NCBI GenBank assembly: GCA_030018505.1 | Contig: JASEHO010000001.1 | Location: 1-58,487 of the forward strand | Direction: 5' to 3' | Length of the DNA stretch: 58,487 nucleotides | Source of the DNA: a bacterium | Lineage (GTDB): Bacteria; UBA9089; UBA9088; JAGUXG01 | Part shown: positions 3,271 through 58,487 of the stretch, one piece after another | Layout: every line of letters starts with the position of its first letter | Numbering within the stretch: the first letter of the stretch is position 1 | Program-made: the position numbers and the translations under genes | The notes under the pieces: model-generated | Database searches by the model: none | Seen by the model: the letters and a program-made list of their open reading frames with translations, nothing else | What the model was told of the DNA's origin: nothing

Positions 3271-3279
3271 ACGGAAGGT

Positions 3280-3486
3280 GTAAGTGTTCAGGTAGTATTC
3301 GAAAAACCAGATTAGAGATTATACCAGATAAGGGGATAAATTCATTGCAAATTTAGCATTTATCATTTCAAATTTGGAATAACATCTCAGTCAATATATT
3401 TCTCTTTCAATGATAAATTTGCAATGCTAAATTTAAAATGAATTATCTTCCTTCGGACACTCCTAATGTATGGGCTGAACGGTTAC
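3280..3486. repeat. Hairpin (MITE/REP-like) element, GTAAC-terminus family, copy A
   Basis: Left end is gtaagtgttcaggtag. Right end ctgaacggttac is the reverse complement of gtaaccgttcag. Internal arms cattgcaaatttagcatttatcatttcaaattt / aaatttgcaatgctaaatttaaaatg are inverted. Confidence 0.75.
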
Positions 3487-4194
3487 CGGAAGGTTAGGAG
3501 AAAGGATTGGGTCGTCATAGCCCAGATCTACAAAAACCCCTTTTTTGGTAAGTGTAGGCAGGATAACAGAAAGCTGGGTCAATTTTTTATTAAGCTCTTT
3601 CTCTTTTGGCAAAACCGAAATCCAGGTATCTTCTATCAAAAAGAAGAGTCTATCTTTCTCTTTCCTTATCTGGTTTATTGGATATTTAGGTAGAAAGGCC
3701 TTTATCCTTTCTACAATAAGATATAGCTCTTGCACATCTATCTTATCACCATGTCTTTTTTTAGAATTGATATGAAGATAGGTAGTATGCGTCTCTTTGG
3801 TTGGAAAGACTACGCCATCTTTATCTACACAAAGACCTTCTCCTATCTGGGCAAAAGGCTTTCTCTCGGTAACAGAGATTATCAGCTTAGAAAGTGGTCT
3901 CTTTTTTATCTTCGCCTCAAGGAGCCTTACATCAGAAAGGAGAAACCTTCGCAGGCTATCTTTTTCTAACTTAAAAAGGTTTGGTCTATGATCTAAGCAG
4001 TTTTCTTTGCAGTAGCTATTAAAGAGGGAAAGTATCTTTTTCTTCTCAAGGTTTCCATCTGTTTCTACCTCTACCTTTCTTATCCGAAATATATCAGAGA
4101 GGATAAACTGCCTTCCTCCAAAAAAAATCAGTCCACAGACTAAAATAAAGAAAGCTACTTTCTTTATTCTTCTTTTATCTCTTTTGCTAATCAT
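3463..4194 (-). CDS. FtsQ/DivIB-like POTRA-domain membrane protein
   Basis: Short basic N-terminus (MISKRDKRRIKK), one TM (VAFFILVCGLIFFGG), then IFRIRKVEVETDGNLEKKKILSLF, which looks like POTRA. I use the first ATG (4194). The track start at 4299 is a TTG inside repeat 4211-4476. Confidence 0.45.
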   Translation of the reverse strand: MISKRDKRRIKKVAFFILVCGLIFFGGRQFILSDIFRIRKVEVETDGNLEKKKILSLFNSYCKENCLDHRPNLFKLEKDSLRRFLLSDVRLLEAKIKKRPLSKLIISVTERKPFAQIGEGLCVDKDGVVFPTKETHTTYLHINSKKRHGDKIDVQELYLIVERIKAFLPKYPINQIRKEKDRLFFLIEDTWISVLPKEKELNKKLTQLSVILPTLTKKGVFVDLGYDDPILSPNLPVTVQPIH

Positions 4195-4210: not shown

Positions 4211-4476
4211 GTAACATTTAGCCACCTGAAGTAAAGATTAACAGAAGACCTTAGGGGATAGCAGATGAAAAGTATAGTATGTGGAGTTGATAACTTCAAT
4301 GATTATTCTGGTTCTGGATTTTTTAGAACTGCTGCTTGATTTCCAAGGTAAGGATTATTGAAATTATTTTTAAGAGAATGAAGTACAATGAAGGAAAAAG
4401 GAGCACCAGTAAAGAATTTGACTGATACTCTGGTGACTGGTGCACTCTTGGTTACTTCAGATGGCTAAAGTGTTAC
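4211..4476. repeat. Hairpin element with 24-nt inverted termini, same family
   Basis: gtaacatttagccacctgaagtaa (4211-4234) versus ttacttcagatggctaaagtgttac (4452-4476). These are reverse complements with 1 indel and 1 mismatch. The right arm recurs at 53877-53903. Confidence 0.65.
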
Positions 4477-5676: not shown

Positions 5677-5683
5677 AATGAAA

Positions 5684-5727
5684 AGTGAAAAGTTAGAAGT
5701 CAAGAGTCGGGAGTCAGAAATCAGAGG
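5684..5727. repeat. AAAGT-rich low-complexity element, copy 2
   Basis: agtgaaaagttagaagtcaagagtcgggagtcagaaatcagagg, similar to 1354-1408. Confidence 0.55.
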
Positions 5728-5846
5728 TAAAAGTAGATTTTAGACTAGAGTATATTGAAAAACTTTTAGCTAAGCTAAGAAAAAATTTATGGAATAGGCA
5801 TAGGGTCTGAAAGAGGCGTCTTGGTAAGTAGTTTGGAAAAGGTATT

Positions 5847-7427: not shown

Positions 7428-7519
7428 GCAATTGAAGAAAAAATCGGTAATTATATTGATTGGCGTGGAGCAGTAGAAAGTGCGTTATGGGAACTTCAAA
7501 GCTCTAAGGAGAAATAATT

Positions 7520-8293
7520 ATGGCCTTATCCGTGCAACAAATTCAAAATATTGAAAATGTTTTATGTAACAGTTTACGACATAAATTCAAAAATTACAAT
7601 CCAGAGCCTGCTTCAATGCCTTTCCATACAAGATTACTTGGTAAAGATAGAATGGCTTTATTTTCTTTCATACATTCTCTAAATACAAATTTCGGAACGA
7701 GTATTTTTGAACCTACTGCATTAACGCTTGCATCATCAACTTTTGCAAGTGCTGCTTCACACCAGATAGCAGGAACACAAATTTCATCAGAGGCACACAG
7801 AGTTATTCAAAACATAATGGACGGATTAACAACAGCCAATTTATCTCCCAATAAGCCAGGTGAAATTGACGCGATTAGAAAAGTTTGCAGACAAGGAGAA
7901 ATGAAAACCGTCAAGCTGACTAAAGTTGATATTAAACTTGTTGCTCACAACGGAATAATCTACTTCTTTGACCTCAAGACTGTAAAACCGAATACAGGCG
8001 GCTTCAAAGAATTTAAGCGGACACTTTTAGAATGGATTGCCGCAGTACTTGCAACAAATCCTACAGTAAATGTTCAATCACTCATTGCGATTCCTTACAA
8101 TCCTTATGAACCACAACCCTACAACCGCTGGACAATGCGGGGAATGTTAGACCTTACCAATGAATTGAAGGTAGCAGAAGAGTTTTGGGATTTTCTTGGT
8201 GGAGAAGGTGCCTATCAAGATTTGCTCAATATTTTTGAAAGTATAGGAATTGAGCTAAGGCCAGAGATTGATAATTATTTCAAACAATTATAG
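7520..8293 (+). CDS. Type II restriction endonuclease, TdeIII-like family
   Basis: At 257 aa, the segments MPFHTRLLGKDRMALFSFIHSLNTNFGTSIFEP ... FDLKTVKPN ... IAIPYNPYEP ... LKVAEEFWDFLGG match my memory of proteins annotated as TdeIII family. It sits just downstream of a methyltransferase. Family assignment is unverified. Confidence 0.55.
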   Translation: MALSVQQIQNIENVLCNSLRHKFKNYNPEPASMPFHTRLLGKDRMALFSFIHSLNTNFGTSIFEPTALTLASSTFASAASHQIAGTQISSEAHRVIQNIMDGLTTANLSPNKPGEIDAIRKVCRQGEMKTVKLTKVDIKLVAHNGIIYFFDLKTVKPNTGGFKEFKRTLLEWIAAVLATNPTVNVQSLIAIPYNPYEPQPYNRWTMRGMLDLTNELKVAEEFWDFLGGEGAYQDLLNIFESIGIELRPEIDNYFKQL

Positions 8294-8309: not shown

Positions 8310-8364
8310 GGAGATAAATCATTTCAAATTTAGCAAAAGTAAATTTAACAAAAGTAAATTTACA
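8310..8364. repeat. Half-copy of the hairpin-element arm
   Basis: ggagataaatcatttcaaatttagca is the exact reverse complement of tgctaaatttgaaatgatttatctcc at 28037-28062. It is followed by aaagtaaattta repeats. Confidence 0.6.
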
Positions 8365-17795: not shown

Positions 17796-17843
17796 GTAAC
17801 TATTTACCTAACTTCCGTAAAAAGACTGAAAGACTCGAGTTCA
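17796..17843. repeat. 48-nt module of the hairpin-element family (identical to 20066-20113)
   Basis: gtaactatttacctaacttccgtaaaaagactgaaagactcgagttca is present identically at 20066-20113. A 6-nt variant lies at 53719-53766. Confidence 0.85.
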
Positions 17844-18524: not shown

Positions 18525-20069
18525 ATGGTAGAGCTTTATGATACCACCTTGCGGGATGGGGCACAAACAGAGGGAATATCCTTCTCCCTTTTAGATAAGA
18601 TTGCTGTAGCTCTGGCGATTGACAGGCTTGGGATAAGATATATAGAGGGTGGGTGGCCTGGTTCAAACAAAAAGGACGATCAGTTTTTCTCTAAGATAAA
18701 GAAAGAGAATCTGTCTGCTGAGATAATAGCCTTTGGCTCAACAGCACATCCCAAGTATTCTGCCTCAGATGACCCAAATATCTCTGCTTTGCTCTCGGCA
18801 AAGACAAAGATTATTACTATCTTTGGAAAAACCTGGGACTTTCAAGTGAAGAAGGCACTCCGTATCTCCTTAGACGAAAACCTGAAGCTAATAGATGATT
18901 CTATCTCTTATCTTGTGTCAAAAGGAAAGAGGGTCTTCTTTGATGCTGAACACTTCTTTGATGGCTACAAAGCAAACCCTGCCTATGCTAAGAAGGCAAT
19001 AGAGACTGCGGTAAATGCTGGAGCAAGCGTGATTATTCTCTGCGATACCAATGGAGGCACACTCCCGCATCAGATTGAGGAGATAATTAGCGGATTAAAG
19101 GCAGGCTATCCTTTGGGTATCCACAGCCATAATGACTCAGAGCTTGCCTGTGCAAATACATTAGCAGGTATTCGTGCTGGCTGCACTCAGGTTCAAGGCA
19201 CAATCAATGGCTATGGCGAGAGATGCGGAAATGCCAACCTATGCTCCATCATTCCCTTGCTCAAGCTCAAATTAGGGATGGATGTTGTCTCAGATGACAG
19301 GCTCAAGTCTCTTACCGAAGTTTCAAGGCTTATCTCAGAGATAGCCAACATTGCTCCCAGACCCTTTCAGCCTTATGTAGGCAGTTCTGTCTTTGCCCAT
19401 AAAGCTGGTATTCATGCCTCTGCAGTGACAAAAGAACCAGCTACTTATGAGCATATAAAACCAGAGGATGTAGGAAACACAAGGAGAATCCTCATCTCAG
19501 AGCTGGCTGGCTCATCCTCTATCCTCCATAAAGCAGGGGAGCTGAAGATTGACCTCTCAAAGGATTCCAAAGAGACAAAAAGGATAATCAACGAAATAAA
19601 GAGGTTAGAGAATGAAGGGTATCATTTTGAATCAGCAGAGGCAAGTTTTGAGCTTCTCATAGACAAGGCTCTGGGTTTGTATAAATCCCCATTTACCTTA
19701 AAGAGCTTCAGGGTTATAGTGAGAAAGGAAGAGGGGAGGCTCATCTCAGAGGCGGTAGTGAAGGTTTGCACAGAAAAAGAGGAAAGTTATACTGTGGCTG
19801 AGGGTGATGGCCCAGTAAATGCCCTTGATTCTGCCATTCGTAAGGCATTGGAAAAGCACTATCCAGAGATTACCGGGATGCAGCTTATAGATTATAAGGT
19901 CAGGGTTTTGGATGCAAAGAAAGGCACAGCCGCCAGGGTCAGGGTTTTGATAGAATCTAAAGATAGGGAGGGCCACTTCGGAACTGTCGGTGTTTCAGAG
20001 AATATCATTGAGGCCTCCTGTGAAGCCATGCTTGATGCGATTGAGTATTTTTTGTTAAAAAGGAGGTAA
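18525..20069 (+). CDS. cimA: (R)-citramalate synthase (LeuA-family, CimA type)
   Basis: YDTTLRDGAQTEGISFS..DKI...YIEGGWPGSN.KD..FF, HSHNDSELA, GTINGYGERCGNANL, and C-terminal GDGPVNALD...RVLIES. This resembles the Geobacter-type CimA as I remember it. Confidence 0.8.
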   Translation: MVELYDTTLRDGAQTEGISFSLLDKIAVALAIDRLGIRYIEGGWPGSNKKDDQFFSKIKKENLSAEIIAFGSTAHPKYSASDDPNISALLSAKTKIITIFGKTWDFQVKKALRISLDENLKLIDDSISYLVSKGKRVFFDAEHFFDGYKANPAYAKKAIETAVNAGASVIILCDTNGGTLPHQIEEIISGLKAGYPLGIHSHNDSELACANTLAGIRAGCTQVQGTINGYGERCGNANLCSIIPLLKLKLGMDVVSDDRLKSLTEVSRLISEIANIAPRPFQPYVGSSVFAHKAGIHASAVTKEPATYEHIKPEDVGNTRRILISELAGSSSILHKAGELKIDLSKDSKETKRIINEIKRLENEGYHFESAEASFELLIDKALGLYKSPFTLKSFRVIVRKEEGRLISEAVVKVCTEKEESYTVAEGDGPVNALDSAIRKALEKHYPEITGMQLIDYKVRVLDAKKGTAARVRVLIESKDREGHFGTVGVSENIIEASCEAMLDAIEYFLLKRR

Positions 20070-20444
20070 CTATTTACCTAACTTCCGTAAAAAGACTGAA
20101 AGACTCGAGTTCACGGAGAATTCCATTGCAAATTGCAAATTTAGCATTTATCATTTCAAATTTGGAAGATATATGGAGTCCATTAATTAAGTTGACATAA
20201 AAAATGGAGGTGGTTCTTTTTATCGTTTTTCCTAATGATTTCTTTTTGGAAATTAGAAATTAGAAATTGGGGGGAAACAGATATAATTTTCTTCTCTTTT
20301 CCTAATTTCTATTTTCCAATTTCAAATTTCAATATGTCAAATTATTTATTAGATTGCATATAGTATCTTGAGTCGCTATATTTCTTTCCTTAAATTTGCT
20401 TTTGCTAAATTTGAAATGTTAAATTTGCTAGTGAATTTATCTCC
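20066..20444. repeat. Composite nested-palindrome element (hairpin family, largest copy)
   Basis: Starts with the 48-nt module. The outer arms ccattgcaaattgcaaatttagcatttatcatttcaaattt / aaatttgcttttgctaaatttgaaatgttaaatttgctagtg enclose a second palindrome, ggaaattagaaattagaaattgg / ttcctaatttctattttccaatttc. Confidence 0.75.
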
Positions 20445-24573: not shown

Positions 24574-24605
24574 CTTGGACTGGCGAAATTTTTTGCGGCT
24601 GGCTT
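24574..24605. repeat. Left 32-nt inverted repeat bounding the R-M cassette
   Basis: cttggactggcgaaattttttgcggctggctt. Its reverse complement matches 27011-27042 at 29 of 32 positions, with a perfect 20-nt core (24580-24599 versus 27017-27036). Confidence 0.85.
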
Positions 24606-24645
24606 TTGATTTTTTTCTTGTCCCACCCTCTCCAGTGCGGAAAAG

Positions 24646-24837
24646 ATTAAGGAACTCCCTATAAAACGATTAAGAGAAAAACTGGGCTTGTCGCAGGAAA
24701 AACTGGCTCGGCTTGCCGATGTTTCCAATAATACGATAATCAATATTGAAGCAGGCAAGCAACAAAACCCGACTGTTGATACAATCAAGAAAATCGCAAA
24801 AGCGTTAAATGTTCCAATTGAGGACTTAATCAAATAA
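24646..24837 (+). CDS. XRE/Cro-family helix-turn-helix protein (candidate R-M controller C-protein), start codon unclear
   Basis: Frame 1 is open over 24610-24837: ...IKELPIKRLREKLGLSQEKLARLADVSNNTIINIEAGKQQNPTVDTIKKIAKALNVPIEDLIK*. No ATG or GTG lies upstream of the HTH, only ATT 24646, ATA 24661 and TTG 24688. It is missing from the ORF track for that reason. Confidence 0.5.
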   Translation: MKELPIKRLREKLGLSQEKLARLADVSNNTIINIEAGKQQNPTVDTIKKIAKALNVPIEDLIK

Positions 24838-24841
24838 ACCA

Positions 24842-25855
24842 ATGAAAGACAAAGCGTTAAAACATCGGGCACCGAGAAATAGAACTATCACATTGATCGA
24901 TAGCGATATTTCAAATTTTAAAAAACGGCTGATAAAAATAGGCAAACCCGTTTCGCTTGAAGAAATTGAGAACAAAACCATACATCAAGATATTTTTGAG
25001 GCATTAGATTATTTACCGGATAGTTTTGTTGATTTAGTTTTTGTTGATCCGCCCTATAATCTCAATAAAACTTTTAACCTTGCTTCGTTTAAGGAAATGG
25101 AGTCAGAAAAATATGAGCAATGGCTTGATTCTTGGGTTGTTAAACTTATTCGGATACTGAAGCCACACGCCTCTGTTTATATTTGCGGTGATTGGAAATC
25201 GTCAGGAGCAATTTTTAATGTAGCGAAAAAATATTTTAAAATACAAAATCGCATAACTTTTGAACGAGAAAAAGGACGAGGCGCAAAGAGCAATTGGAAA
25301 AATTGCTCCGAGGATATTTGGTTTTGTACACTTTCCGATAAATATCATTTCAATGTTGACGCAGTAAAAATGAAGCGTAAAGTTATAGCACCATACAAAG
25401 ACGAAAACGGAAAGCCGAAAGATTGGGAGGACGGCGACAATGGAAAGTATAGAATTACCCACCCGTCGAATGTTTGGACCGACATTACAATTCCGTTTTG
25501 GTCAATGCCGGAGAATACCGACCACCCAACACAAAAACCGGAAAAATTAGTCGCTAAAGTTATTTTGGCCAGCTCAAAACCAAATGATATTGTTTTTGAT
25601 CCGTTTCTCGGTTCGGGTACAACTTCGGTTGTCGCAAAAAAACTTGGTCGCCGGTATGTTGGGATAGAAATTGATGAGCATTATTGTTGTCTTGCTGAAA
25701 AACGGTTAGATATAACAGGAAACGAAAAAAACATACAGGGATACTCAGACGGCATATTTTGGGAACGCAATACACTTAACGAGCAAATGAACGGAAATGG
25801 AAAGGAAAATAAAGTTGAGTTATCAGAAAATTTATTTAATTCAAAATTATTATGA
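24842..25855 (+). CDS. Beta-class DNA amino-methyltransferase (DPPY; probably N6-adenine)
   Basis: Motif IV DLVFVDPPYNL precedes motif I FDPFLGSGTTSVVAKKLGRRYVGIEID, and HPTQKPEKL is present. Confidence 0.85.
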   Translation: MKDKALKHRAPRNRTITLIDSDISNFKKRLIKIGKPVSLEEIENKTIHQDIFEALDYLPDSFVDLVFVDPPYNLNKTFNLASFKEMESEKYEQWLDSWVVKLIRILKPHASVYICGDWKSSGAIFNVAKKYFKIQNRITFEREKGRGAKSNWKNCSEDIWFCTLSDKYHFNVDAVKMKRKVIAPYKDENGKPKDWEDGDNGKYRITHPSNVWTDITIPFWSMPENTDHPTQKPEKLVAKVILASSKPNDIVFDPFLGSGTTSVVAKKLGRRYVGIEIDEHYCCLAEKRLDITGNEKNIQGYSDGIFWERNTLNEQMNGNGKENKVELSENLFNSKLL

Positions 25856-27012
25856 TACATAAAGAAATTATTTCATTTATAAACTTCATAAAGTCTAAAG
25901 ACGGAATTGCCAACAAGACAAATCTGATTAGGGAAGTTCAAGAGAAATTCAAACTGACAAAAGACAGGTCGGTTTATTATTCAAAAAATTTTGCTGTTCG
26001 TTTCAATTTTTCAACTTCAACAAGTTTTTCAAATACCGTCATTTCTCTTTCTAACTTGCAAAAATACGACGACCAACCATTTATTGTTTGTTTAGTAACT
26101 CCAACAAAAAATATTTTATATCTGGCAAACTCAACCTTTTTGCATAAAGTTAGTCATAGTTCACAATTATTGAGAATTGATAATATTCGCGGCAGTATCA
26201 ATGGCCATGATATTGCAAAAAAGTTTTCGGATATAGACAATTTACCAGAAAATTTTGAAAAATTATTTAGCATTCATGCAGAATTAGGTTTTGACGGAAA
26301 TTTAGTCAGACTTGTTGAGGCAACAACAAATATTAGTCCGTCAGGGAAAAAATTTGTCGTAACCTCTACCGCTAAAGCGACGATTCAAGAAGCACCGCGG
26401 CGAGCAATGAATTTTGTGCAGTCAAAAGAATATACGCAATTGAAAGCAGAGTTAGACGCGAAAGTAGAAAAATACAAGAATGAAATTCTAATTGCTGGAT
26501 TTATCGAAAATGTAAATATAAGAGGGAGGGTCATTGAATATCTTATTGCTGGCGAAGATGAAAAATTAAGAAAAAGTTTGGTCAATGCCCTTCATGAACG
26601 CGGTAATGTAATTCCCGGATTTAAGACAAAAAATAGTCTTGCGGATTATATTCGCACATTTGATAAATTTAATACTGCTACCGATGTTAAAACAAAAATA
26701 ATGGTATTGAGTTCAAATCCAAAGGGCTACAATATAGATAAGTTATTGGAATTTTTAGCAACTGGAAAATCGGTGTTTATGTTTTATTTTATTGGTATAG
26801 AGCCAAACAAAATTGTAAATAAAATACTGACTTCCATGTTTCAAACAGACTTACTTAAATCAACCATATTGTTGAAACATTGGTCGGGTCGTAATTCCAG
26901 AGGCGTAACGCAATTTGAGGGAGGAATTATCCATAAACTAATTTTGTCGCCAAACAATAGAATTGATAATAGCGAAGGCAATAAATTTTTAGAAACATTG
27001 ATTGATTTGTAA
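25852..27012 (+). CDS. Hypothetical protein, candidate cognate type II restriction endonuclease
   Basis: 386 aa. Its ATG overlaps the methyltransferase stop (ATGA), and I recognise no family. A possible D...DxK site occurs at FDKFNTATDVKTK. The call rests on position only. Confidence 0.35.
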   Translation: MIHKEIISFINFIKSKDGIANKTNLIREVQEKFKLTKDRSVYYSKNFAVRFNFSTSTSFSNTVISLSNLQKYDDQPFIVCLVTPTKNILYLANSTFLHKVSHSSQLLRIDNIRGSINGHDIAKKFSDIDNLPENFEKLFSIHAELGFDGNLVRLVEATTNISPSGKKFVVTSTAKATIQEAPRRAMNFVQSKEYTQLKAELDAKVEKYKNEILIAGFIENVNIRGRVIEYLIAGEDEKLRKSLVNALHERGNVIPGFKTKNSLADYIRTFDKFNTATDVKTKIMVLSSNPKGYNIDKLLEFLATGKSVFMFYFIGIEPNKIVNKILTSMFQTDLLKSTILLKHWSGRNSRGVTQFEGGIIHKLILSPNNRIDNSEGNKFLETLIDL

Positions 27013-27042
27013 GCCCGCCGCAAAAAATTTCGCCAGCTCAAG
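27011..27042. repeat. Right 32-nt inverted repeat bounding the R-M cassette
   Basis: aagcccgccgcaaaaaatttcgccagctcaag. It overlaps the stop codon of the 386-aa ORF. Confidence 0.85.
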
Positions 27043-27897: not shown

Positions 27898-28095
27898 GTA
27901 AGCGTTCAGGTAGGTCCGAAAAATAGATTAAATTCATTGCAAATTGCAAATTTAGCATTTATCATTTCAAATTTTCAAAGATAGCATCTTGAGTCGCTAT
28001 ATTTCTTTCCTTAAATTTGAAATGCTAAATTTGAAATGCTAAATTTGAAATGATTTATCTCCGGACACCCCTAATGTATAGGCTTAAGCGGTTAC
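27898..28095. repeat. Hairpin (MITE/REP-like) element, copy E (archetype)
   Basis: gtaagcgttcaggtagg ... cttaagcggttac termini. The arms are cattgcaaattgcaaatttagcatttatcatttcaaatt / aaatttgaaatgct x3 (14-nt tandem at 28013-28054). It abuts the stop codon of the giant ORF. Confidence 0.8.
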
Positions 28096-31000
28096 CTAAA
28101 ACTTAAACTCAATACTGACATAGCTTCCATAGCCGATGTAATCCTTGCCATCAAGCACCCTGTCTTTGAAATATTCAAGATTTGCCCCGAGTGTTCCCTT
28201 GAGATTCTTCTGGACATTATAGGTTCCTGAGAGATTGAGCTTGAGATAGTCTGTATTCAGATCTTTTCTATCCTTTTGTCCAGGTATCTTCTTTGTTGTT
28301 CTCTTGAAGCTCATATTCAGCCCGCCATTTAAGACCAGCTTTCTTTCTAAGTCAATCTTCTTATTGGTGAATGGAACCCGCAAGAACCCTGGCTTTGTAA
28401 AGTCATAGGCAAAAGAAGAGCTGGGATCAATTGAGATGGAGTTTGTGACCACACCAAGCCTCTCTTCCAGCTTTGTGTAAGTAGTGCTAAGAATAGCCTT
28501 AGTCGTAAGTGGTCTCTGCCAGGTTGCCGACCATTCAAAATATGGGCTATGGGTGGTAGTTTTGTTCTGTTCCTCTGAAAGTGTATAGTTATGACTCCAG
28601 TCTATCTTATAATTTGCCTTTGCCTCAGAGGCCTTAAATTTATTAGTCAGGCATGGCTTTGCCGAGAGCAGATTAAGGGTATTGTTTATCTCCTGGCAGA
28701 TAGAGTCTGCTCTACTCAGGCTATTAGTCTCCTTCAGGGTGTAGGTGAACTTTGAGTTTGTGGTCATTGGTTTATAGAGAAACCAGTCAGAATTTATCCA
28801 AAACTTTCTTTCATTACTGGAGCTTGTCCTCTTTGCCAGCTTATATAAATCACCCTCTCCTCCCCTTCTTTTCCAGAGAAGCCCCTGATAGTAATCCTCG
28901 TAGATATTAGCCAAAGTTACCAGGGTTGCCTCATCAAAAGGAAGGTTGTCATATCCAGCATTAGCACCAAGAGAGAAACCGCAAGATGGGGTAAGACCAT
29001 AATTCTTCCAAGAGAGTTTAGAAAAGTTTTCTATTAAACTAAAGTATGTATCCATGTTTGCTGTCTTCTTCTCAGGCTCCCGGTTTGTCTTAAAGCAGTA
29101 GTTCTCGTTGAAATTAAACCTCTGGTCTATGTTTATGGAGTTGATGGAATTCAAGTATTTTACCTTTTTGAAGCGTGTCTTGTTTGGATAGAAAAAGCCC
29201 TTATTTAATTCAAGTTTAAGATTTCTATTGGTCAGCCTGAGGCTTGCATCTTCCTTCAACTTTGCTTCCTGTTGCGCCCCATAGAGCCTGCTCTCTGCTG
29301 AAAGCCACTCTCCTTTAACAATATTATAGGTTAAATTGTTTGCCTGATTACAGGAGCCTGTCCTCCAGGTATTCTTGGCTAAGTTAGATTTGCTCTCATT
29401 TTTTATATCTGTTATCTCATACTTATTGGTCAGGGATTTTATTGGAGAAAGGGTTATAATCAGCCCATTGCTTATCCCCTCAGTCTTTAGCCCTTCATTT
29501 GTTGTTGTTCCCAGGCAGTCTTTATAGACGACATCTTCATTACTCAAATTTAGCTTACCAGAATATTCAGAGGAGAAAGAGCTGCTTCCAAGAAACCTTT
29601 TTGAGATAGGAGATTTTGGATAGAATTTAAGGTTAAGCCCAAAAGCCCCATCAGTAGCCTCCCGCTCTTCTTGGGTAGTAGCAGAGCCTGTCCTCTCTGG
29701 ATACTTTAGTCTCCCTGTCCTTCTTCCTCCTCCAAAGGATATATTTGAACCTGCTAGATACTCTTTTGGAACAATCGTCAGAGTATTCTTTAAGCTATGG
29801 GAGGTAGCCTCTTCTTTTTTTGTCGTTGATGTGTCAAGGTAATTGCTGAATGTGCCATTCTTTTGGATGTAATCATAGTTTGTTGTTAGACCTATTGCCT
29901 TTGTTTTAGCTCCCTTCCAAAGCGTGTGTCCATAAGCCAAGCCTCCAGTTATTTCATGATTGACTAAGTCATTATTGTTTGCCTCATATTTGTAGCTGGC
30001 TTCATTCTTCTTCCAGGAGGAATAAAGGGTAGGAAAACCCTTATCTTTTATCTTATTTGGGTTAAAGCTCATCTTGACTAATTGATCTTTCTTTAGCATA
30101 TTCCCAAAGCTCTGATTACTCACCTCATCTACATTCTGAAAAGTAAGATTACCCTTCGACCTGTCATAGGTATAGGAAAGATCAGTCAAGGCTGGAATTC
30201 TGGTAATCTTTCCATCAAAATGCTCGGACTGGGTCTCTTCTCCAGAGGATGCTGGGCCAAGGGTACGAAAAGAACCAGACTTCTCGCTCCTATTCATATT
30301 GAAGCTACCCCACTTGTTGTTACCGCCAGATACAGAGAAGAAATAAGCCTCTCCATCTCTCTCTATAACCTCAGAGAGATGAAGCTCATTTATCCAGACC
30401 TCATCAGACTCCGCAGACTCTACCACGAACATAAGTTCCTTTACCATTCCTAAATTTGGACTACCCAAGATATAATATTGGTCTGTCTCTGTGCCTTTCT
30501 GCTTCTTTGCCAACATCTCCTTGAACCTTGCCAGGTCTAAAGTGATCAACTTCCATTGACTACTCAATGTTCCGCAAGTAAACTTGAAGTAGTTAGCGTT
30601 ATCCAAGCCAAATTGAAATGCCAAAGATGAGCTTCCAACAGAAGACTTTGCCCAAAATCTCAGTCTTCCATAGCTCCAATAGTTGTGAAATCTTCCTAAT
30701 TTTTTCCTGATGGAGAGTGTTGTGGCTGTGCTTGGCTCTATCTTTAGAAAAAGCAAGCCATCTTTTTCAATCTTCTCATTTTTGTGTAGATTCTTATATT
30801 CTTCTGTATCTTTTGGAAAGTCATAGTCTGCATCATCCTTGCTGTTCTTCCCCTCTAATATGGCTGTTCCTGTGCCTTTAAGAAACATAGGTTTCTCCCA
30901 GGAGGCACCGGTAATGGCTATCTGGTCTATATAAATGCTTCCGTTGTATGTAGCTCCTGCTTCTGTCTTAAACTTTAATCTTATATCCTTTATCACCTTC

Positions 31001-34000
31001 CAGAAATCTGTGCTTGTGCTTATATCAGTCAGGGGAATGCTGTAAAGCTTCCAGCCTTGAGCAGTATTTATTGTCTTTATGTAATATTTTTCATCGTTGA
31101 CCAATATTCCTGATAGATTTTGGTCTGTGTCAAGGATTCCATTGCCATTAAGGTCCTCTGTATCTAACTTACCATTGCTCTTTCCAACCTTTGTCAGAGT
31201 GCCAAAGGAAAACCCTATATCCTCCCCTGGATTGAGATAGCCATCCTTATTTATATCCTCTGTGTCTAAAATTCCATCATTATCAAAGTCTTCACTTGCT
31301 TTGCCTAAATCAATATACAGCTTGACTGTAGAAGAAGCAGGCGCATTTGCCCAAACCTGAAGATGGGAATACTCTGAAAGATCCTCTCCATCTTTTGAAA
31401 TAGACTGAACTTCTGATAGACTGCTATCTGTTCCAAGCTCAAGCTCAAAGCAGAGCATCTTCTGTTTATTTTGATCTTCATCCGAGCGATGACCCCCATC
31501 CTTATTGTATGGTCCAGCCCTCTCGGAAAATGGGGTTTGTTTGCCGCTGTCAGTATAAAATATCTTTCCCTCCCTTGATATACCTGAAAGTAGCCAACTA
31601 TCTTCATTTATTGCTATTGTTCTCTCTCCTTCTAAATCATCCATAGAGTCTATCATCCCATATCCATAGGTATTCGGATTCTGAGTTGACCTGGCCATCT
31701 CTGCTTCTACACTGAGGCTGTTTAATGGTAAAGAGCGGTCTCCTGCTCTTTCTTTCAAGAGATTGATAAGGTTCACCTTTGTATTTAGATCAAAGACCGA
31801 TAAGGATGTAGAGGGATGAGTTACTGAGGGCGCACCCTTTAGCCCAGCACCAGTCTCACCTATGAATGTAGAGCCGAGAGAGATATCTTTATGGGGCGCA
31901 TAGGTAAGCCTGCTTCCAAAGAGACTCTTTTGATAGACACCAAGGAAGGGCGCATATTCATAGTCTATGCGTATCTTGTCAGATTTGGCTATCTTTCGGT
32001 AAATGGTGAGATGACCTACCTCATAATCTAATCTATAATCTGGTTTTGATAGCCTGTTTCCATTCAGATAGACCCTTTCACTATCCGGGACAATGTTTAG
32101 CTCATTAAGGGTAAATAACATGCTCTCCCTCGGATAGTTGATATGAATAGAGTATTTTGAAGAAGGGCTTGTTTGCTTATAGCAATCAGGGTTGGATAGG
32201 GTTGGCAAGAGATTTGAAAACTGCGAGAGGATACCTGCGATAATAGTGTCTTCTATATAAAACCTGTTGGCATATTTAGCTCCAGTAGTGCCAAAGTCAA
32301 AGGGAAGGCGGTCAGGAAACTTGAGCATCCCTGAATCCTGGTCAATAAACTCCTTATCTATCTTTCCATACCCAGGTCTTTCGTTTCCATACTGGTCATA
32401 CCTGGTCTCTCTGTCAAGGCCAAAAAGCCGAACATAAGGTATCTCGTCTGTATCCTTTAAGCCATCGCCATCTGCATCATACCAGGATTTTCCATTTGCA
32501 TCCTTTATCTCTAAGGAAAAATTTGCCTCATCAGGGTTTATCTTTCCATAGCCAAGGCTATAGTAGCCCTTAATCTCAAAGAGATTATACCACTCAGGGT
32601 GGTTGGTCTCCTCTATTTTATCCTCTTTAATAATAAGATTTGTAGTCAGACTTCCCTTTCCATCAATAAAGGAGAGGCAAACAACATCATTATCCTTAAA
32701 TGAGTTTCTTATGGAGATTATGCCAGTGTTATAGTCTAATGTATAGTCATCGCCTGGATACTGAAGGTCAAACCAGCCTGTATGTGAGCCAGCATGATTA
32801 TAGGTATAGGCTGTAAACTGCTCTGCTGTATAATTGTTATCCCCTATCTGGTCGTCTATATAGACCTTGACTGAGCCAGGTTTTATTGGAAGATAGCCCT
32901 TTGCTTTGAGATATTCAATCCTGCCACCTTCTGTTGTTTCTGTGCCAAGAGGAATCTCTGCCAAAAGCTGATAGTATCTTCGGCTAATATAATTGGTGAC
33001 AGGAATATCTTTTAAGACTAAGCTTTGCGTTCCTGTCCATTCTTTGCTTCTTGACTCGCCTTTTTCTCTGCTGGCTATGGCTGTTAGACCCAATTTATTT
33101 TTCAGAAACTGGGCCTTGCCGTTTATCCCAAAACCTGACTTTTTATAGCTCACAAACCTTGTCCCGGGAATCTCTAATGCGACATCACCAAAGTTTACTT
33201 CCTGGATAACCTCCCCTTTCTCTCCTGCATACTTCACTTCAAAGGTCTTCTTTGGATCGGCAAGATCTGTGCTCTTATCAGAGTAATCTATGTTGACTGT
33301 TACCTTCTTCTTCACAACCCCTTTGATGCTTACATCAAGCTCCTGGGCTATATTCAGCTGATTAGAGGTTTTTCCCTTCTCTTTTGTGTTTAGATAGTTC
33401 TTGCCATTATAATCCATCTTGATAAACTTGCGACCCAAGACAGTAAGCTCTGACTCCTCTGGCAGTCTCCATTTTGCCCAGTCCCCAGGTGTAGTCTTTA
33501 ACTCCTGTAGATTGCTTGGTAGGTAAGCAAGGGTTTCTATCCTTTTTTCTGTCTCTTTTGTTCTTTCTGTGGCTTTTACTGTCAAGGCTTCCATAGATAT
33601 TGGTGGTCTAATTTCTGGCTCTTTAGGTGGTATTACCTCTGGTATCTTTGCAATCTCTACTTTTGGTGGTATTACCTTTGCCTTCTCTGGCTCTTTCGGT
33701 GGTTCTGCTTTTGCTTCTGGTTTTTCCTCTTTTTGATGAGCAAGCTCTAATTCTGGTTCAAGATCTTTCATCTCCTCTTTCTTTAAGGTTTCTCTTTCAA
33801 CTAAAAGTTTTTCTGCCTCTCGGACAAGCTCATTATCTACAGAAAATCTGTCTAATTCTTTTTCTATCTCCGCAGAAACTACCTTTTCCAAAGGAGGAAT
33901 CTCTACTCTTTCTGTTCTTAAGGGTGGAATCTCTGGCTGGGGTTCTTCGGCTGTTTTGGCAACCTTTTCTAAAGGAGGCTCTGGCAAGACTTCTTCCTTT

Positions 34001-34386
34001 TTCTCTTTTTCCAATTCGCTACGCAATTCCAAACTCTCCTTCTTGCTTTCTCCTTCTATCTCCTTCTTTACTTCAGAGAATGACGGGTAGGAGAAGCTCA
34101 AAGGAGGGGATGAAAGGCTATAAGATGGGACTGCTGGCAGGATGATAGTCTCTTTTTCTTCCTTTTGTTCAGAAGGAAATAGGCCGCCTCCATCGTTTCT
34201 CATAGAGAATAAAGGATTGGTCTTCTTTTGGACAGCCCTTTCTACCTGCTTTATAATCACCCTCTGCTCAGGAAGCAAGAAAAGCCCTTCATCTTTCGCC
34301 AAGCGTTTTTCTATGTCAGGAAGGAGCAAGGTTTCTGCAAAAACCAGGGTAGAGAAGAGACCAAGCAAAAAAAACTTTCTTTTCAT
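28096..34386 (-). CDS. Giant secreted outer-membrane protein (2096 aa), SprA (T9SS translocon)-like
   Basis: Signal peptide MKRKFFLLGLFSTLVFAE, a ~200-aa P/E/K-rich region, and the segment EVNFGDVALEIPGTRFVSYKKSGFGINGKAQFLKNKLGLTAIASREKGESRS, which recalls the SprA GNVSMPL...LFG.K..LQFG...T.V.S signature. It also has Dx[DN]xDG calcium-type repeats (DNDGILDTEDINKDGYLNPGED, DTEDLNGNGILDTDQN) and a beta-barrel-type C-terminus ...YVSIEFKF. The CDS is certain; the SprA call is tentative. Confidence 0.45.
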   Translation of the reverse strand: MKRKFFLLGLFSTLVFAETLLLPDIEKRLAKDEGLFLLPEQRVIIKQVERAVQKKTNPLFSMRNDGGGLFPSEQKEEKETIILPAVPSYSLSSPPLSFSYPSFSEVKKEIEGESKKESLELRSELEKEKKEEVLPEPPLEKVAKTAEEPQPEIPPLRTERVEIPPLEKVVSAEIEKELDRFSVDNELVREAEKLLVERETLKKEEMKDLEPELELAHQKEEKPEAKAEPPKEPEKAKVIPPKVEIAKIPEVIPPKEPEIRPPISMEALTVKATERTKETEKRIETLAYLPSNLQELKTTPGDWAKWRLPEESELTVLGRKFIKMDYNGKNYLNTKEKGKTSNQLNIAQELDVSIKGVVKKKVTVNIDYSDKSTDLADPKKTFEVKYAGEKGEVIQEVNFGDVALEIPGTRFVSYKKSGFGINGKAQFLKNKLGLTAIASREKGESRSKEWTGTQSLVLKDIPVTNYISRRYYQLLAEIPLGTETTEGGRIEYLKAKGYLPIKPGSVKVYIDDQIGDNNYTAEQFTAYTYNHAGSHTGWFDLQYPGDDYTLDYNTGIISIRNSFKDNDVVCLSFIDGKGSLTTNLIIKEDKIEETNHPEWYNLFEIKGYYSLGYGKINPDEANFSLEIKDANGKSWYDADGDGLKDTDEIPYVRLFGLDRETRYDQYGNERPGYGKIDKEFIDQDSGMLKFPDRLPFDFGTTGAKYANRFYIEDTIIAGILSQFSNLLPTLSNPDCYKQTSPSSKYSIHINYPRESMLFTLNELNIVPDSERVYLNGNRLSKPDYRLDYEVGHLTIYRKIAKSDKIRIDYEYAPFLGVYQKSLFGSRLTYAPHKDISLGSTFIGETGAGLKGAPSVTHPSTSLSVFDLNTKVNLINLLKERAGDRSLPLNSLSVEAEMARSTQNPNTYGYGMIDSMDDLEGERTIAINEDSWLLSGISREGKIFYTDSGKQTPFSERAGPYNKDGGHRSDEDQNKQKMLCFELELGTDSSLSEVQSISKDGEDLSEYSHLQVWANAPASSTVKLYIDLGKASEDFDNDGILDTEDINKDGYLNPGEDIGFSFGTLTKVGKSNGKLDTEDLNGNGILDTDQNLSGILVNDEKYYIKTINTAQGWKLYSIPLTDISTSTDFWKVIKDIRLKFKTEAGATYNGSIYIDQIAITGASWEKPMFLKGTGTAILEGKNSKDDADYDFPKDTEEYKNLHKNEKIEKDGLLFLKIEPSTATTLSIRKKLGRFHNYWSYGRLRFWAKSSVGSSSLAFQFGLDNANYFKFTCGTLSSQWKLITLDLARFKEMLAKKQKGTETDQYYILGSPNLGMVKELMFVVESAESDEVWINELHLSEVIERDGEAYFFSVSGGNNKWGSFNMNRSEKSGSFRTLGPASSGEETQSEHFDGKITRIPALTDLSYTYDRSKGNLTFQNVDEVSNQSFGNMLKKDQLVKMSFNPNKIKDKGFPTLYSSWKKNEASYKYEANNNDLVNHEITGGLAYGHTLWKGAKTKAIGLTTNYDYIQKNGTFSNYLDTSTTKKEEATSHSLKNTLTIVPKEYLAGSNISFGGGRRTGRLKYPERTGSATTQEEREATDGAFGLNLKFYPKSPISKRFLGSSSFSSEYSGKLNLSNEDVVYKDCLGTTTNEGLKTEGISNGLIITLSPIKSLTNKYEITDIKNESKSNLAKNTWRTGSCNQANNLTYNIVKGEWLSAESRLYGAQQEAKLKEDASLRLTNRNLKLELNKGFFYPNKTRFKKVKYLNSINSINIDQRFNFNENYCFKTNREPEKKTANMDTYFSLIENFSKLSWKNYGLTPSCGFSLGANAGYDNLPFDEATLVTLANIYEDYYQGLLWKRRGGEGDLYKLAKRTSSSNERKFWINSDWFLYKPMTTNSKFTYTLKETNSLSRADSICQEINNTLNLLSAKPCLTNKFKASEAKANYKIDWSHNYTLSEEQNKTTTHSPYFEWSATWQRPLTTKAILSTTYTKLEERLGVVTNSISIDPSSSFAYDFTKPGFLRVPFTNKKIDLERKLVLNGGLNMSFKRTTKKIPGQKDRKDLNTDYLKLNLSGTYNVQKNLKGTLGANLEYFKDRVLDGKDYIGYGSYVSIEFKF

Positions 34387-34397
34387 ATTTAAGATTC

Positions 34398-34590
34398 GTA
34401 ATTGTTCAGGTGGTGTAAGAAAAGGGGATATGGAGATTAAGGGGATATTTATTTTGGTAACTGGTTAATATGGTAACTGATGAATGGTAATTGGTAACTA
34501 TTTAACCAATTATCAATCACCCGTTATTTTACCATTTTCCATATTTCCCTTATCTCCTTATCCCCTTTTTTACGCTTCTGATGGATAACC
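34398..34590. repeat. Hairpin element, copy F (near-twin of 57760-57967)
   Basis: gtaattgttcaggtggtgtaagaaaaggggatatggagattaagggg...ggtaactggttaa...ttaaccaattatc...tttcccttatctcc...ttttttacgcttctgatggataacc. Confidence 0.85.
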
Positions 34591-34603
34591 CTAAGATTCA
34601 TCG

Positions 34604-34684: not shown

Positions 34685-34861
34685 AGCTTATGTAGCAGGT
34701 ATTAGTCAAAAGTTCCCATAAAACAAACATAAGGATTCAAGGGGTCGAATGATCAAGGATTCAAGTAAAATCATAAGGAATCCATCACTCGAACCCTCGA
34801 ATCCTTGAACCCTTTTACAAAAACATGAGAACTTTTGGTTAATAAGTGCTATAAAAGAGCT
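34685..34861. repeat. Large imperfect palindrome (hairpin element) between tRNA-Gln and the VIT/vWA gene
   Basis: agcttatgtagcaggtattagtcaaaagttcccataaaacaaacataaggattcaagg... mirrors ...ccttgaacccttttacaaaaacatgagaacttttggttaataagtgctataaaagagct. The start agcttatgta also occurs at 17746. Confidence 0.7.
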
Positions 34862-46321: not shown

Positions 46322-49300
46322 TTATATGTTAACTTCTTTGCCACATCTTTTCTCCTTTAATTTCTCCTCTATTACTTTTGCCAATTTGGGATAGCGGCGG
46401 AAATACCAGTTCTCTACCTCTTTGGTGTCGTCTTCGTTCAGGTTGTACATCTGATAGACCAGCTTGTCTATCTCTATTTGCTCGTTGGTCATGTAGTCGT
46501 AGCGGAGGTTTTGCTTTTGCTTGGTGATGATTTGGGAGATGAGGATTTTTAATCTATTTAGGTTTGTCAGCAAAAGAATCTTTTTAACATCTTCTATTCC
46601 ATAATTCACTGTGTGATTAATAAATATTCTGGATAAATAGCGGGTTAGCTTAGAACATAACAGGCCCAACACTTCTTCTATGTCATGTGCAATGTTGAGA
46701 ATATCAGAACTACCATGATCAAAAGGTCCTTCGTAATTTAATCTGAAGGTAGGACAATATATGCCAGCCCAAGAAAAGCTTATCCCCTTCCTGAAATAAA
46801 AATCAGCGTTCTGGAATCTGGAGCACAATTTATTAGATCCCCTGCCGTCTCTCTCCACAATCGTTAGGGTCTTCATCCTCCTGACCGCCTCTTCTGACCA
46901 ATCGATAAAGTAATCCGTCGGCACATAGTAATTAGGCAGCCAGCCTTCTTCGATGTCAGAGGCACCTCCCTTGTCGTAAGGCACAAAATATCTCCTGCCA
47001 AAATATCGCTCAGGGTCTTTGCCCCTTTCCTTGCAAATCCCTTTTTCAATAACCCGTTTCCTCAATTCCTCATCATTGACAATCCTTTCCAGATCATCTT
47101 CAGTTAAAACCAGATCAAAATCCACCATTGGATAGTTCTTGCCAACGCCCTTAATCCGTTCCCTTGATTGTCTCAGATAGTAATCATTATCACCTGTTGC
47201 CAACCCCTGTTTCACCTCAGCCACATCCCCAAGCTTCACCAGCTCCAGCTCCTTGCCATTAAACTCCACCAGATAGGTATCTGGCTCTTTATCTACCTCT
47301 CCCAGTTCAAACTCTCTATGCTTCTTATTCCCCACATCCCGCATCAAGCCAAAGAGCTTTGGTGAGGCAATGAAGAATGAATGATTGGAAAAGCGGGTGA
47401 TAAGCTTCTGTCTGTAAGCAAAGATAGCCATATCTCTATCAGACCAAATTGTATCACCATCCTTTGACTCATCAAAGCCCTTGTGTTCCATCAGTAGCTC
47501 AAAGGCAGCCTCTACATCTCCTTTTTCAATAGACAGCGGTGAGAAATCCGCAGCTAATATCCAGTTATTTCCACCTTCTTCGGGTTTAAATCGTTTAATA
47601 AAGGAGTAAACCCCAGGATTGACTGTGGCGGCAAAGGTATCATTTGGCACAGAGATTAGGTATTGAACATCAGTTTGACTTAACAACTGGTCGCGTAATT
47701 CCTTGTGAGTTCGGATAGTCTGCCAGGTGTCAGACATAATGAAGGAGAGTGTGCCACCTGGTCGAAGTATCTTCAAGGCAAGAGAGGTAAACAGACCATA
47801 GCTATCTTTGCTTCCCAGCCTAAACTCATCCTTGACTGTTGTGGGCACCTTCACCCCATAGGGCGGGTTGCCGATAACAATATCAAACCCTTCCTTCATC
47901 GATATAATCTCAAAGAAATCCAGCCCCCAGTTAAAGAGATTGCAAAGGCTATCGACATTATTCAAATGCCCCTGCAACTTTTGTATCTCTTTTTTAATTA
48001 TCTCCTTAAAAGGCAATTCCGCCTGACTTTTATATTCCGCAAATAGTTCCAGTTGACTCTCTAATCGAGCCAATTCCTGTTCTGCTTCCTTTATTTTCAT
48101 CCTGAAGAACCATCTGACCAAATCTTTCTTTGCCCTCTCTATCTTAACCTTCGCCTTATCCTTGGCCTCTTTGGTAGGTAACTCCTCGTAATCTCTTTTG
48201 AGCTTTACGAAATTATCCAGCAAATCAGCGCCTTGCGTATCTAATTTAACCTTCTTTTCTATATCAAAGGGATAATCACCAACCTTTGATATTAGGCTGT
48301 CCCCTTCAATGATATGGAAGTCAAGGTTAGGAAGTGGTGGAATATCCTTAATATCCTCTACCTCTAAATCAACTATCAGAGAAAGCCACAATCGCAGGTT
48401 AGCCAGATTGACCGCCCTTCTTTGAATATCCACGCCATAGATATTATTCTCAATAATCTGGCGCTTCAGGTGATAGCGGTAATCCTTCTGTTCTGTTTTT
48501 TGGAGTGCATTGACCATGTCAATGCATGCATCGTCACGGACGATGCACTCCATATTAGAATCAATCGCCTTAACAATCTCCACCATCTTGAGCAAAATCC
48601 CCACAGCAAAAGCCCCAGAGCCAACCCCAGGGTCAACAATCTTGACCTTTAATAATGCCTCTCTTATTCCAGTCAGTTCATCTTCTGCAAAACCATCCAC
48701 ATCTAAATTAAACACCAGTCTTCTTAGCAGATTTTTGTTTATATTATTAGCGGATAAATAATTTAGAAGGGAGTGCTTAACCATAAAAGCCACAATAAAC
48801 TTAGGGGTGTAATAGCTCCCTGTGCTCCGTCTGGGATCAGGAATATCTTTAAACTCCTGATGTTCAAGGTTCAAAATCAACTGCTCAAAGATAGTTCCCA
48901 GCATCTCAGGGTCAATAGCCACTTCCTGCTCAAATTCGGTATCCTCACGAACAGTAAAATTATATCGTTCTAACAGGTCGGAAAATATAACCTTAAAAAT
49001 CTCATTGGGTATGATGACCTCTTCCTCTGTATCCTCATACTCAAACAAGCCGCCGTTTAAGAAAGGGATATTGTTAAATCGACCGTTGCTATACTTGGGA
49101 TTAGAGAGTTTTTTAAAGACTGGTATCAAAAACTCCTGGTAATAATTTACCTTGTCTTTTAGGCATAACTTAAGATTATCATAAAGATAATAGGGGTTTT
49201 CATTCAGTAGCCTCTTCTTCTGAATATAGTAGAGGAAAAAGAGACGGTTAAAGAGATTTTGGGTAAATAAATCTGCCTTCTCCTGGGTTATCTTATTTGT

Positions 49301-50468: not shown

Positions 50469-50492
50469 AAAGCAAATTCCTATCAGTTCAGC

Positions 50493-53718: not shown

Positions 53719-53903
53719 GTAACTATTTACCTAACTGAAGCAAAAAGACTGAAAGACTCGAGTTCACGGAGAATTTCACTAGCAAATTTAACAAAAGCAA
53801 ATTGATTATTTTAATTTGTAATGCTAAATGCTAAATTTGCAATTTGCTAGTGATCTTCTGTGCCCTCTGGTTAATCTTTACTTCAGATGGCTAAAGTGTT
53901 ATC
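53719..53903. repeat. Hairpin element, copy H
   Basis: gtaactatttacctaactgaagcaaaaagactgaaagactcgagttcacggagaatttcactagcaaattt ... aaatttgcaatttgctagtg ... ttacttcagatggctaaagtgttatc. The right end overlaps the pyrE stop. Confidence 0.75.
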
Positions 53904-57755: not shown

Positions 57756-57759
57756 AAGG

Positions 57760-57967
57760 GTAACCGTTCAGGTGGTGTAAGAAAAGGGGATATGGAGATT
57801 AAGGGGATAGGGATAAGGGGATATTTATTTTGGTAACTGGTTAAATGGTAACTGATGAATGGTAATTGGTAACTATTTAACCAATTATCAATCACCCGTT
57901 ATTTTACCATCTCCATATTTCCCTTATCTCCTTTTTTACACTTCTGATGGATAACCTAAACGGTTAC
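57760..57967. repeat. Hairpin element, copy G (near-twin of 34398-34590)
   Basis: gtaaccgttcaggtggtgtaagaaaaggggatatggagattaagggg...ttttttacacttctgatggataacctaaacggttac. It differs from copy F by an extra ~12-nt block and a few substitutions. Confidence 0.85.
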
Positions 57968-57976
57968 ATAAAAGGT

Positions 57977-58399: not shown

Positions 58400-58432
58400 A
58401 TTAAAATTATAGAGAGAAGCCCTTTTTTATGC

Positions 58433-58487
58433 GTTGGATATTGAATGGTGACAGCTTTTGTCCATAGGTGGAAAAATGTGATACAAA
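58433..58487. repeat. 55-nt exact direct duplicate of 58314-58368, at the window end
   Basis: gttggatattgaatggtgacagcttttgtccataggtggaaaaatgtgatacaaa occurs twice, 119 nt apart. The second copy ends exactly at the last base. Confidence 0.9.

Follow-up and report, generated by a model that had tools for sequence, protein, structure and literature searches.

What are the hairpin-forming repeats that lie against gene ends in contig JASEHO010000001.1, and which kind of transposase put them there? The stretch analyzed here, 58,487 nucleotides (58 kb) and referred to as the window, had been described from its letters alone as carrying at least ten copies or fragments of a family resembling both miniature transposable elements with inverted repeats (MITEs) and repetitive extragenic palindromes (REPs). 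We read each of the ten stretches together with its flanks and compared the window with itself. The stretches are lettered A to J in order of position (Table 1), and the one that raised the question, at 27898-28095, is copy F. Our answer, to which we give a probability of roughly 85%, is that the hairpin repeats are MITEs bearing the terminal inverted repeats of IS66-family insertion sequences (IS) with a single open reading frame (ORF). In everything that could be tested, the window elements behave as IS66-derived MITEs. The MITE half of the earlier description is borne out by terminal inverted repeats and 8-bp target duplications, while the REP-like half is not.

Eight of the ten stretches belong to two related families of 185-380 bp whose ends start GTAA(C/G) and follow the general form GTAA[GC]NGTTYAG on both left and right. 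Family 1, with ends GTAASCGTTCAGGT, comprises copies A, F, G and J, all of which start GTAA[GCT][CT]GTTCAGG. Its left end can be written GTAA[GC]CGTTCAGGT[AG]G and its right end is ...CTGAACGGTTAC or a variant, with about 11 additional bases separating the CTGAAC block from the subterminal repeat. Family 2 has ends GTAACTATTTACC / GTAACACTTTAGCC (the pair also appearing as GTAACTATTTACC... and GTAACACTTTAGCCATCTGAAG...) and comprises copies B and I together with the one-ended pieces D and E. Within family 1, two subfamilies were found repeatedly, both in the window and in relatives: 1a (copies G and J), with GTGTAAGAAAAGG subtermini and a GGGGATAT/GGAGAT core, and 1b (copies A and F), with GTGTCCGAA subtermini and a AAATTTGCAA core. 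The "boxes" TTCAGGTGG and CTTCTGATGG previously noticed as a shared feature do lie near the ends, where each is just a portion of a terminal repeat, left or right.

Comparison of the window with itself revealed identical blocks of 31-66 nt between copies, including 34470-34535, which is identical to 57845-57910 (copies G and J), and one 31-mer common to positions 3345, 20133 and 27944. With at most one mismatch allowed, the terminus motif GTAASNGTTYAG occurs nine times in the window against 2.7 expected, and seven of the nine are ends of listed copies; the GTAA-type termini ascribed to the whole set are absent from C and H, however, and D and E have no right end. All ten repeats are real and lie where the original prediction placed them, but C is one arm, D is one-ended, E is a composite and H does not belong to either family. 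Six copies (A, B, F, G, I and J) are predicted to fold into end-to-end hairpins (z -3.1 to -8.1), as is H, while C and D are not (Table 1). The elements measure 185-379 bp in the window and 111-372 bp in relatives; the two families make up about 3% of the 58-kb stretch, or about one copy per 6.5 kb.

Perfect 8-bp duplications flank three of the four family-1 copies in the window (A, G and J). The right end of copy G, whose duplication is TAAGATTC, lies at 34591 rather than at 34590, as first given. The right repeat of copy G carries a well-supported 10-bp internal deletion that left the last C in place. At copy B, the flanks AAACAAAA / CAACAAAA match at 7 of 8 bases. No duplication was visible at copies F, I or H: the flanks of copy F, CTTTAATC and CTAAAACT, agree at 4 of 8 positions, and for copy I a 7-bp deletion across the right end would, speculatively, explain the loss.

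The same footprint recurs in other genomes. A terminus scan with GTAASCGTTCAGGTRGTGT, covering one genome per species, placed the 19-nt terminus in at least 104 stretches, and about 90 of the matches listed fell in some ten uncultured metagenome-assembled genomes (MAGs), among them JAHIZN01, JAZDOR01, JBFMDD01, JASEGY01, JASEHU01, JBDRHR01, SBAY01 and others. JAZDOR01 is a near relative, with a methyltransferase gene 88% identical at the nucleotide level to that of the window, and it holds many copies of both families. The elements are very abundant in this uncultured groundwater/subsurface lineage. Among the matches listed, 48 were complete family-1 copies in relatives, and 8-bp duplications were perfect at 29 of these and had one mismatch at 6. 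When the right flank was shifted by 4 nt as a control, none of the 48 showed a duplication with two or fewer mismatches. Duplications of 8 bp were also found at family-2 copies in relatives. The 42 different targets averaged 25% G+C versus 39% in the window, and their consensus is a loose palindrome, vAAwwTTb, with A at the last position in only 2%. The target of copy G at 34390-34397, TAAGATTC, also abuts a family-2 terminus at about 3706-3715 of a related metagenome locus (L197); its presence next to both family types fits a target preference common to families 1 and 2. Terminal inverted repeats combined with 8-bp target duplications are the footprint of a DDE transposase.

Which DDE family is involved is indicated by full-length elements carrying the same ends. 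A Blastocatellia MAG (L071, 4803-6395) contains a 1593-bp element with the identical 19-nt terminus at both ends; its inverted repeat, GTAACCGTTCAGGTGGTGTG, is perfect, and the target is duplicated over 9 bp. The only ORF, of 492 aa, matches the Pfam family DDE_Tnp_IS66 (PF03050) at 1.4e-34, as well as DUF6444 and zf-IS66, and scores 285.6 bits against the NCBIfam model NF033517, "IS66 family transposase" (cut-off 180). Single-ORF IS66 members of 1.35-1.9 kb form the ISBst12 group of ISfinder. Remnants of IS66 transposases also lie beside the terminus at four loci in Poribacteria and at one in Chloroflexota. The nearest annotated plasmid relative, a 1585-bp IS66 element with one IS66-family transposase on plasmid pB of Chroococcidiopsis sp. 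CCNUC1 (L194), has ends GTAACCGTTCAAGG / GTAATTGTTCACGG and an 8-bp duplication, GTGAAAAC; its terminus match is looser than that of the Blastocatellia element. These termini agree with published descriptions, in which IS66 inverted repeats begin GTAAGCG and are flanked by 8-bp direct repeats (PMC11946415), and in which repeats GTAAGCGTCCGG... and GTAACCGTCCGGGCA are reported (PMC12888890). Other exact 19-nt matches, in Porphyromonadaceae, Lentisphaeria, Flavobacterium, Hymenobacter, Iningainema and one Blastocatellia MAG, adjoin unrelated genes and are probably due to chance. Blastn of both terminus types against plasmids gave only chance-level matches (E >= 0.7).

Insertion sites differ between the window and close relatives. 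A Hainich groundwater metagenome contig (L196), whose FtsQ-like gene is 91% identical at the nucleotide level, is empty where copy A sits in the window: it runs ...ATCCTCCG straight into TTTGAAGAATAG (TTTGAAG...), where the window reads ACCTTCCG, copy A, ACCTTCCG again and TTTATTC. At the other end of the gene in L196, only 2 nt separate the upstream stop from the start codon. The related locus that shares the copy G target (L197, 84% identity) is also without copy A; in it a family-2 copy follows the stop at a distance of 20 nt, and a family-1a copy has its place after the upstream stop and before the start codon. Both of these sites are empty in L196. Three insertion sites therefore vary among three close relatives. 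Copy A landed among the final codons of the FtsQ-like gene and replaced the last nine: the reconstructed empty site would encode the ending ...SPNLPFIQRPPAKP, then stop, and the present gene ends ...SPNLPVTVQPIH, then stop. Two other loci were considered as clean empty sites and rejected. The closest kdsA relative (L113, 84% nucleotide identity) loses homology exactly at 57760, the left edge of copy J, and has a different downstream gene; a JAZDOR01 locus (L095) keeps the methyltransferase gene beside copy B but differs on both flanks. Exact-protein look-ups of KdsA and HisF for strain variants found neither on record, and no public sequencing run was found to contain the window.

As the original prediction held, the elements favor gene ends. 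Three of the ten window stretches lie in convergent, six in tandem and one in divergent context, and nine abut a 3' end. Three contacts with stop codons were pointed out earlier, and all three are at or in element ends: the TAA of the cimA-like ORF is inside the GTAAC tip of copy E (20067-20069), the TAG of a 2096-aa ORF (28096-28098) abuts the GGTTAC of copy F, and the pyrE TGA (53902-53904) overlaps the last 2 nt of copy I. The C-terminus of the 2096-aa ORF, ...SIEFKF, looks native. For a statistical view we reconstructed the empty sites of 41 copies that have duplications. Not one of the 41 lay in a long ORF; 15 were in tandem, 6 in convergent and 1 in divergent spacers, and in 13 of the 15 tandem spacers the target center was nearer the upstream stop than the downstream start, the median distance to the stop being about 8 nt. 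The gene-end bias is real. It may reflect the choice of AT-rich targets around stops or, equally, the loss through selection of insertions that hit promoters, ribosome-binding sites or coding sequence.

These observations suggest the following mechanism. An IS66-family DDE transposase, encoded elsewhere in the genome or by a visiting element, would bind the ends of about 20 bp, GTAA(G/C)CGTTCAGGT..., and insert the element into an AT-rich 8-bp target (loosely vAAwwTTb), doubling those 8 bp. Between its ends each element forms a long imperfect palindrome, so that a transcribed copy, or single-stranded DNA, would fold end to end. Surviving copies lie in spacers, mostly a few bases past stop codons; that insertions do least harm there is the likeliest reason for this location. 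Some insertions hit the final codons of a gene and now provide C-terminal residues or the stop codon. We infer, rather than observe, which transposase moves the elements in this organism, whether movement continues and any effect on transcripts.

Several points weigh against an IS66 origin. As already stated before this analysis, there is no transposase in the window: none of its 40 ORFs matched a transposase family in Pfam, and tblastn with an IS66 transposase gave no match. Nor was an IS66 transposase gene present in about 0.5 Mb of related MAG loci; a related-locus search of the genome contigs with the L071 transposase returned only L071 itself. The full-length elements with the same terminus come from other phyla and have only about 19-20 nt in common with the MITEs, and the roughly 11 extra bases at family-1 right ends are absent from them. 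Copies F and I retain no duplication. Finally, the case for mobility comes from presence and absence between relatives at 84-91% identity, with no transposition seen directly.

We also weighed four other explanations. The first is that the elements are host-adopted RNA structures, stabilizing or attenuating hairpins or unconventional terminators, that persist after stop codons for that reason. Their strong bias to positions about 0-15 nt past stops would fit such a role, as would the very stable predicted hairpins and the retention of the decayed, immobile copies F, G and I. The same bias would arise equally if insertions into promoters and coding sequence were selected against, however, and copies B and G also lie next to gene starts. 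The proposal that the copies probably act as terminators found no support. Three terminator scans of the window found no terminator-like site inside any copy and no match to a G+C-rich stem followed by a T-run, so the copies were rejected as canonical terminators; terminator-like sites were in any case no commoner in the window than in shuffled sequence. At the Rfam gathering score the window contains four tRNAs only, and no copy matches an RNA family. The hairpins may have a role at mRNA ends, but we consider host adoption unlikely as an explanation of the elements. A broader form, in which IS66-type MITEs would be kept by the host as genome-wide gene-end modules whose hairpins set or protect mRNA 3' ends or insulate neighbors, while rewriting C-termini and giving stops through the TAA of the GTAA tip, seems to us just as doubtful.

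Alternatively, the elements could be MITEs of another DDE family that makes 8-bp duplications, such as ISL3, IS256 or IS1595, with the likeness to IS66 ends coincidental. This would fit the failure to find a cognate transposase in this lineage, and also the fact that full-length IS66 elements are identical to the MITEs over no more than about 19-20 terminal bases. Against it, the ends known from the other 8-bp-duplication families start GG..., not GTAA. The 19-nt pattern led to a complete IS66 element whose two ends are identical, and to IS66 transposase remnants in another three MAG groups. A GTAAGCG/GTAACCG start is the published IS66 signature (PMC11946415, PMC12888890). We regard a different DDE family as quite improbable.

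Still less probable is that the elements are palindromes of the REP or bacterial interspersed mosaic element (BIME) kind, or of the IS200/IS605 type, moved by a single-strand HUH/Y1 transposase, either a REP-associated tyrosine transposase (RAYT) or TnpA, the enzymes that had been proposed as their cognates. The elements do resemble REPs in being hairpin-forming, intergenic, very numerous and often past gene ends, and a few core-only hairpins without GTAA ends follow stop codons (L004 and L006, described below). Y1/HUH transposition makes no duplication and needs no terminal inverted repeats, whereas most intact copies have 8-bp duplications, and it is because they make none that we reject REP/BIME and IS200/IS605 elements. 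Lengths of 150-270 bp are far above the 20-40 nt of REPs, the ends match IS66-family DDE elements, and there is no Y1 transposase in the window. Palindrome-associated insertion of the IS200/IS605 type, which occurs 3' of a fixed tetra- or pentanucleotide without duplication, is ruled out by the 42 variable, AT-rich, duplicated targets. That the shared termini are chance and the copies unrelated AT-rich spacers, as the low-complexity interiors that differ between copies, the short fragments C and D and the lack of shared termini in H might suggest, is already refuted by the excess of terminus matches paired around hairpins, the exact 31-66 nt blocks common to copies, and the dozens of full-length relatives with duplications in other genomes.

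Table 1. Coordinates and properties of the repeats, their target duplications and the gene altered by copy A. MFE, minimum free energy.
Feature	Position	Strand	Length	Description	Fold
Copy F (focal), family-1b MITE	27898..28095	+	198 bp	left end GTAAGCGTTCAGGTAGG, degenerate right end GGCTTAAGCGGTTAC, AAATTTGCAA-type core; between the stop of the 2096-aa ORF and the hisF start	MFE -46.7, z -3.4
Copy A, family-1b MITE	3280..3486	+	207 bp	ends GTAAGTGTTCAGGTAG ... CTGAACGGTTAC	z -3.1
Copy A target duplication	left 3272..3279, right 3487-3494		8 bp	CGGAAGGT	
FtsQ-like gene	3463..4194	-		last 7 residues (VTVQPIH, then stop) read from copy A	
Copy G, family-1a MITE	34398..34591	+	194 bp	left end GTAATTGTTCAGGTGG, GGGGATATGGAGAT core; between the start of the 2096-aa ORF and the tRNA-Gln 3' end	MFE -72.2, z -7.5
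Copy G target duplication	34390-34397 and 34592-34599		8 bp	TAAGATTC, perfect	
Copy J, family-1a MITE	57760..57967	+	208 bp	ends GTAACCGTTCAGGTGG ... TAAACGGTTAC	MFE -82.9, z -8.1
Copy J target duplication	57752-57759 and 57968-57975		8 bp	ATAAAAGG, perfect; kdsA-like stop codon inside the duplication	
Copy B, family-2 MITE	4211..4476		266 bp	ends GTAACATTTAGCCACCTGAAG ... CTTCAGATGGCTAAAGTGTTAC; unique interior; in the divergent spacer between the FtsQ-like and methyltransferase genes	z -5.0
Copy I, family-2 MITE	53719..53903		185 bp	ends GTAACTATTTACCTAACTGAAG ... CTTCAGATGGCTAAAGTGTTATC; AAATTTGCAA-type core	z -6.1
Copy E, one-ended composite	20066..20444			family-2 left end, without right terminus; AAATTTGCAA core split by an insert	
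Piece D, family-2 left-end fragment	17796..17843				no fold, z +1.3
Fragment C, single arm of a family-1b core	8310..8364			no terminus	no hairpin, z -1.9
Palindrome H, separate element	34685..34861		177 bp	near-perfect palindrome; GGATTCAAGG core, ends AGCTTATGTAGCAGG...; between tRNA-Gln and the stop of a VIT/VWA gene	MFE -59.7, z -8.4

The incomplete members in Table 1 can be related to intact ones. The left end of copy E is identical over 48 nt to piece D, and fragment C includes a 26-nt perfect reverse complement of 28037-28062, within copy F. An insert of about 190 bp (about 20166-20358) sits in the core loop of copy E and has its own hairpin, GGAAATTAGAAATTAGAAATTGG ... CCTAATTTCTATTTTCCAATTTC; comparison with a related locus (L002) bounds it by GGAAGATA and GTATC. 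The insert is another small element nested in copy E. Palindrome H was rejected as a family member because of its different ends: it has no GTAA tip. Related MAGs gave only two weak matches to its core, and H may belong to another, less common kind of element.

In two JAZDOR01 contigs, JAZDOR010000151.1 (L004) and JAZDOR010000024.1 (L006), AAATTTGCAA-type hairpin cores without GTAA termini stand right after stop codons. These are either MITEs whose two termini have been lost or a hairpin element in its own right, of smaller size. A further, unlikely possibility is that the palindromic cores made of short repeats (AAATTTGCAA, GGGGATAT and GGTAAT types) are a smaller mobile or self-expanding layer of their own, passing from one MITE family to another.

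Other repeats were seen in the window. Two one-armed low-complexity blocks (AAAGTGAAAAGTTAAAAGTC...AGAATCAGAG), at 1353-1416 and 5676-5745, lie at or shortly 3' of two gene ends. The first, after which comes a perfect TTGACA-18-TATAAT promoter match at 1433-1462, stands between ORFs resembling parts of a single membrane glycosyltransferase-like gene (DUF2079 and PMT_2 fragments). At the window end there is a 66-nt direct repeat (58303-58368 / 58422-58487), its units 94% identical and spaced 119 nt apart. The 5' region of a ferredoxin-like ORF (57977-58399, minus strand) is overlapped by this repeat, which may mark where a tandem paralogue begins or belong to another repeat family truncated by the window edge.

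The 2096-aa ORF flanked by copies F and G (28096-34386, minus strand) begins with an MKRKFF-type N-terminus and matches nothing in Pfam at E up to 0.001; its C-terminus, ...YVSIEFKF, resembles an outer-membrane beta-barrel signal. Copy G lies 11 nt upstream of its start codon, and no obvious ribosome-binding site is left. The 58 kb also hold at least three restriction-modification or defence-like modules: a DNA methylase with a TdeIII-type endonuclease (5847-8293); a methylase cassette next to tRNA-Ser (24574-27042), with 32-nt inverted repeats at 24574-24605 / 27011-27042 that are 91% complementary; and an Eco57I-like 1182-aa enzyme followed by a PLD-helicase protein (46322-53630).

Bacterial MITEs are well known, and IS66-derived families have hardly been described; no paper describing one was found in the literature searched. 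The elements have practical consequences. They break short-read assemblies, as seen from the many related copies located at contig ends of MAGs, and gene calling is misled by spurious ORF extensions and by C-termini and stop codons that a MITE encodes. The elements are useful markers for strain-level population studies of groundwater and subsurface metagenomes. With their 3'-end bias and AT-rich, loosely palindromic target, they also offer a simple system in which to separate target choice from selection in IS66-type transposition.

Compared with known systems, the window elements share with REP/BIME sequences an intergenic hairpin form, positions past gene ends and high copy number, but the latter measure 20-40 nt, have neither terminal inverted repeats nor duplications and depend on RAYT tyrosine/HUH enzymes for their movement. 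Bacterial MITEs generally, of which Correia, RUP and ERIC elements are examples, have the same short non-coding form, IS-matching inverted repeats, duplications, high copy number and intergenic location, and occasionally change a gene 3' end. Those three, like MITEPsy1, trace back to IS families other than IS66 (IS5, IS630 and others), and their duplications measure 2-4 bp, unlike those of the window elements. MITEPsy1 is from Pseudomonas syringae (PMC3189936). Classical three-gene IS66 elements (tnpA-tnpB-tnpC; IS66, ISPa75) have the same GTAAGCG / GTAACCG start and 8-bp repeats (PMC11946415, PMC12888890), but they are 2-3 kb long and their repeats diverge past about 9 nt (GTAAGCGTCCGG... versus GTAAGCGTTCAGG...). 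The single-ORF IS66 elements of the Blastocatellia MAG and of Chroococcidiopsis pB have the same GTAA(C/G)CGTTCAGGT... repeats (19 nt identical with the former), an 8-9-bp duplication and an AT-rich target. The window elements differ from them in their size of 185-380 bp, the lack of a transposase gene, palindromic short-repeat interiors unrelated to the IS interior and the approximately 11 extra bases at family-1 right ends, with no full-length partner yet seen in the lineage. They are a known kind of element in a new host, unusually dense and diversified, and mechanistically ordinary.

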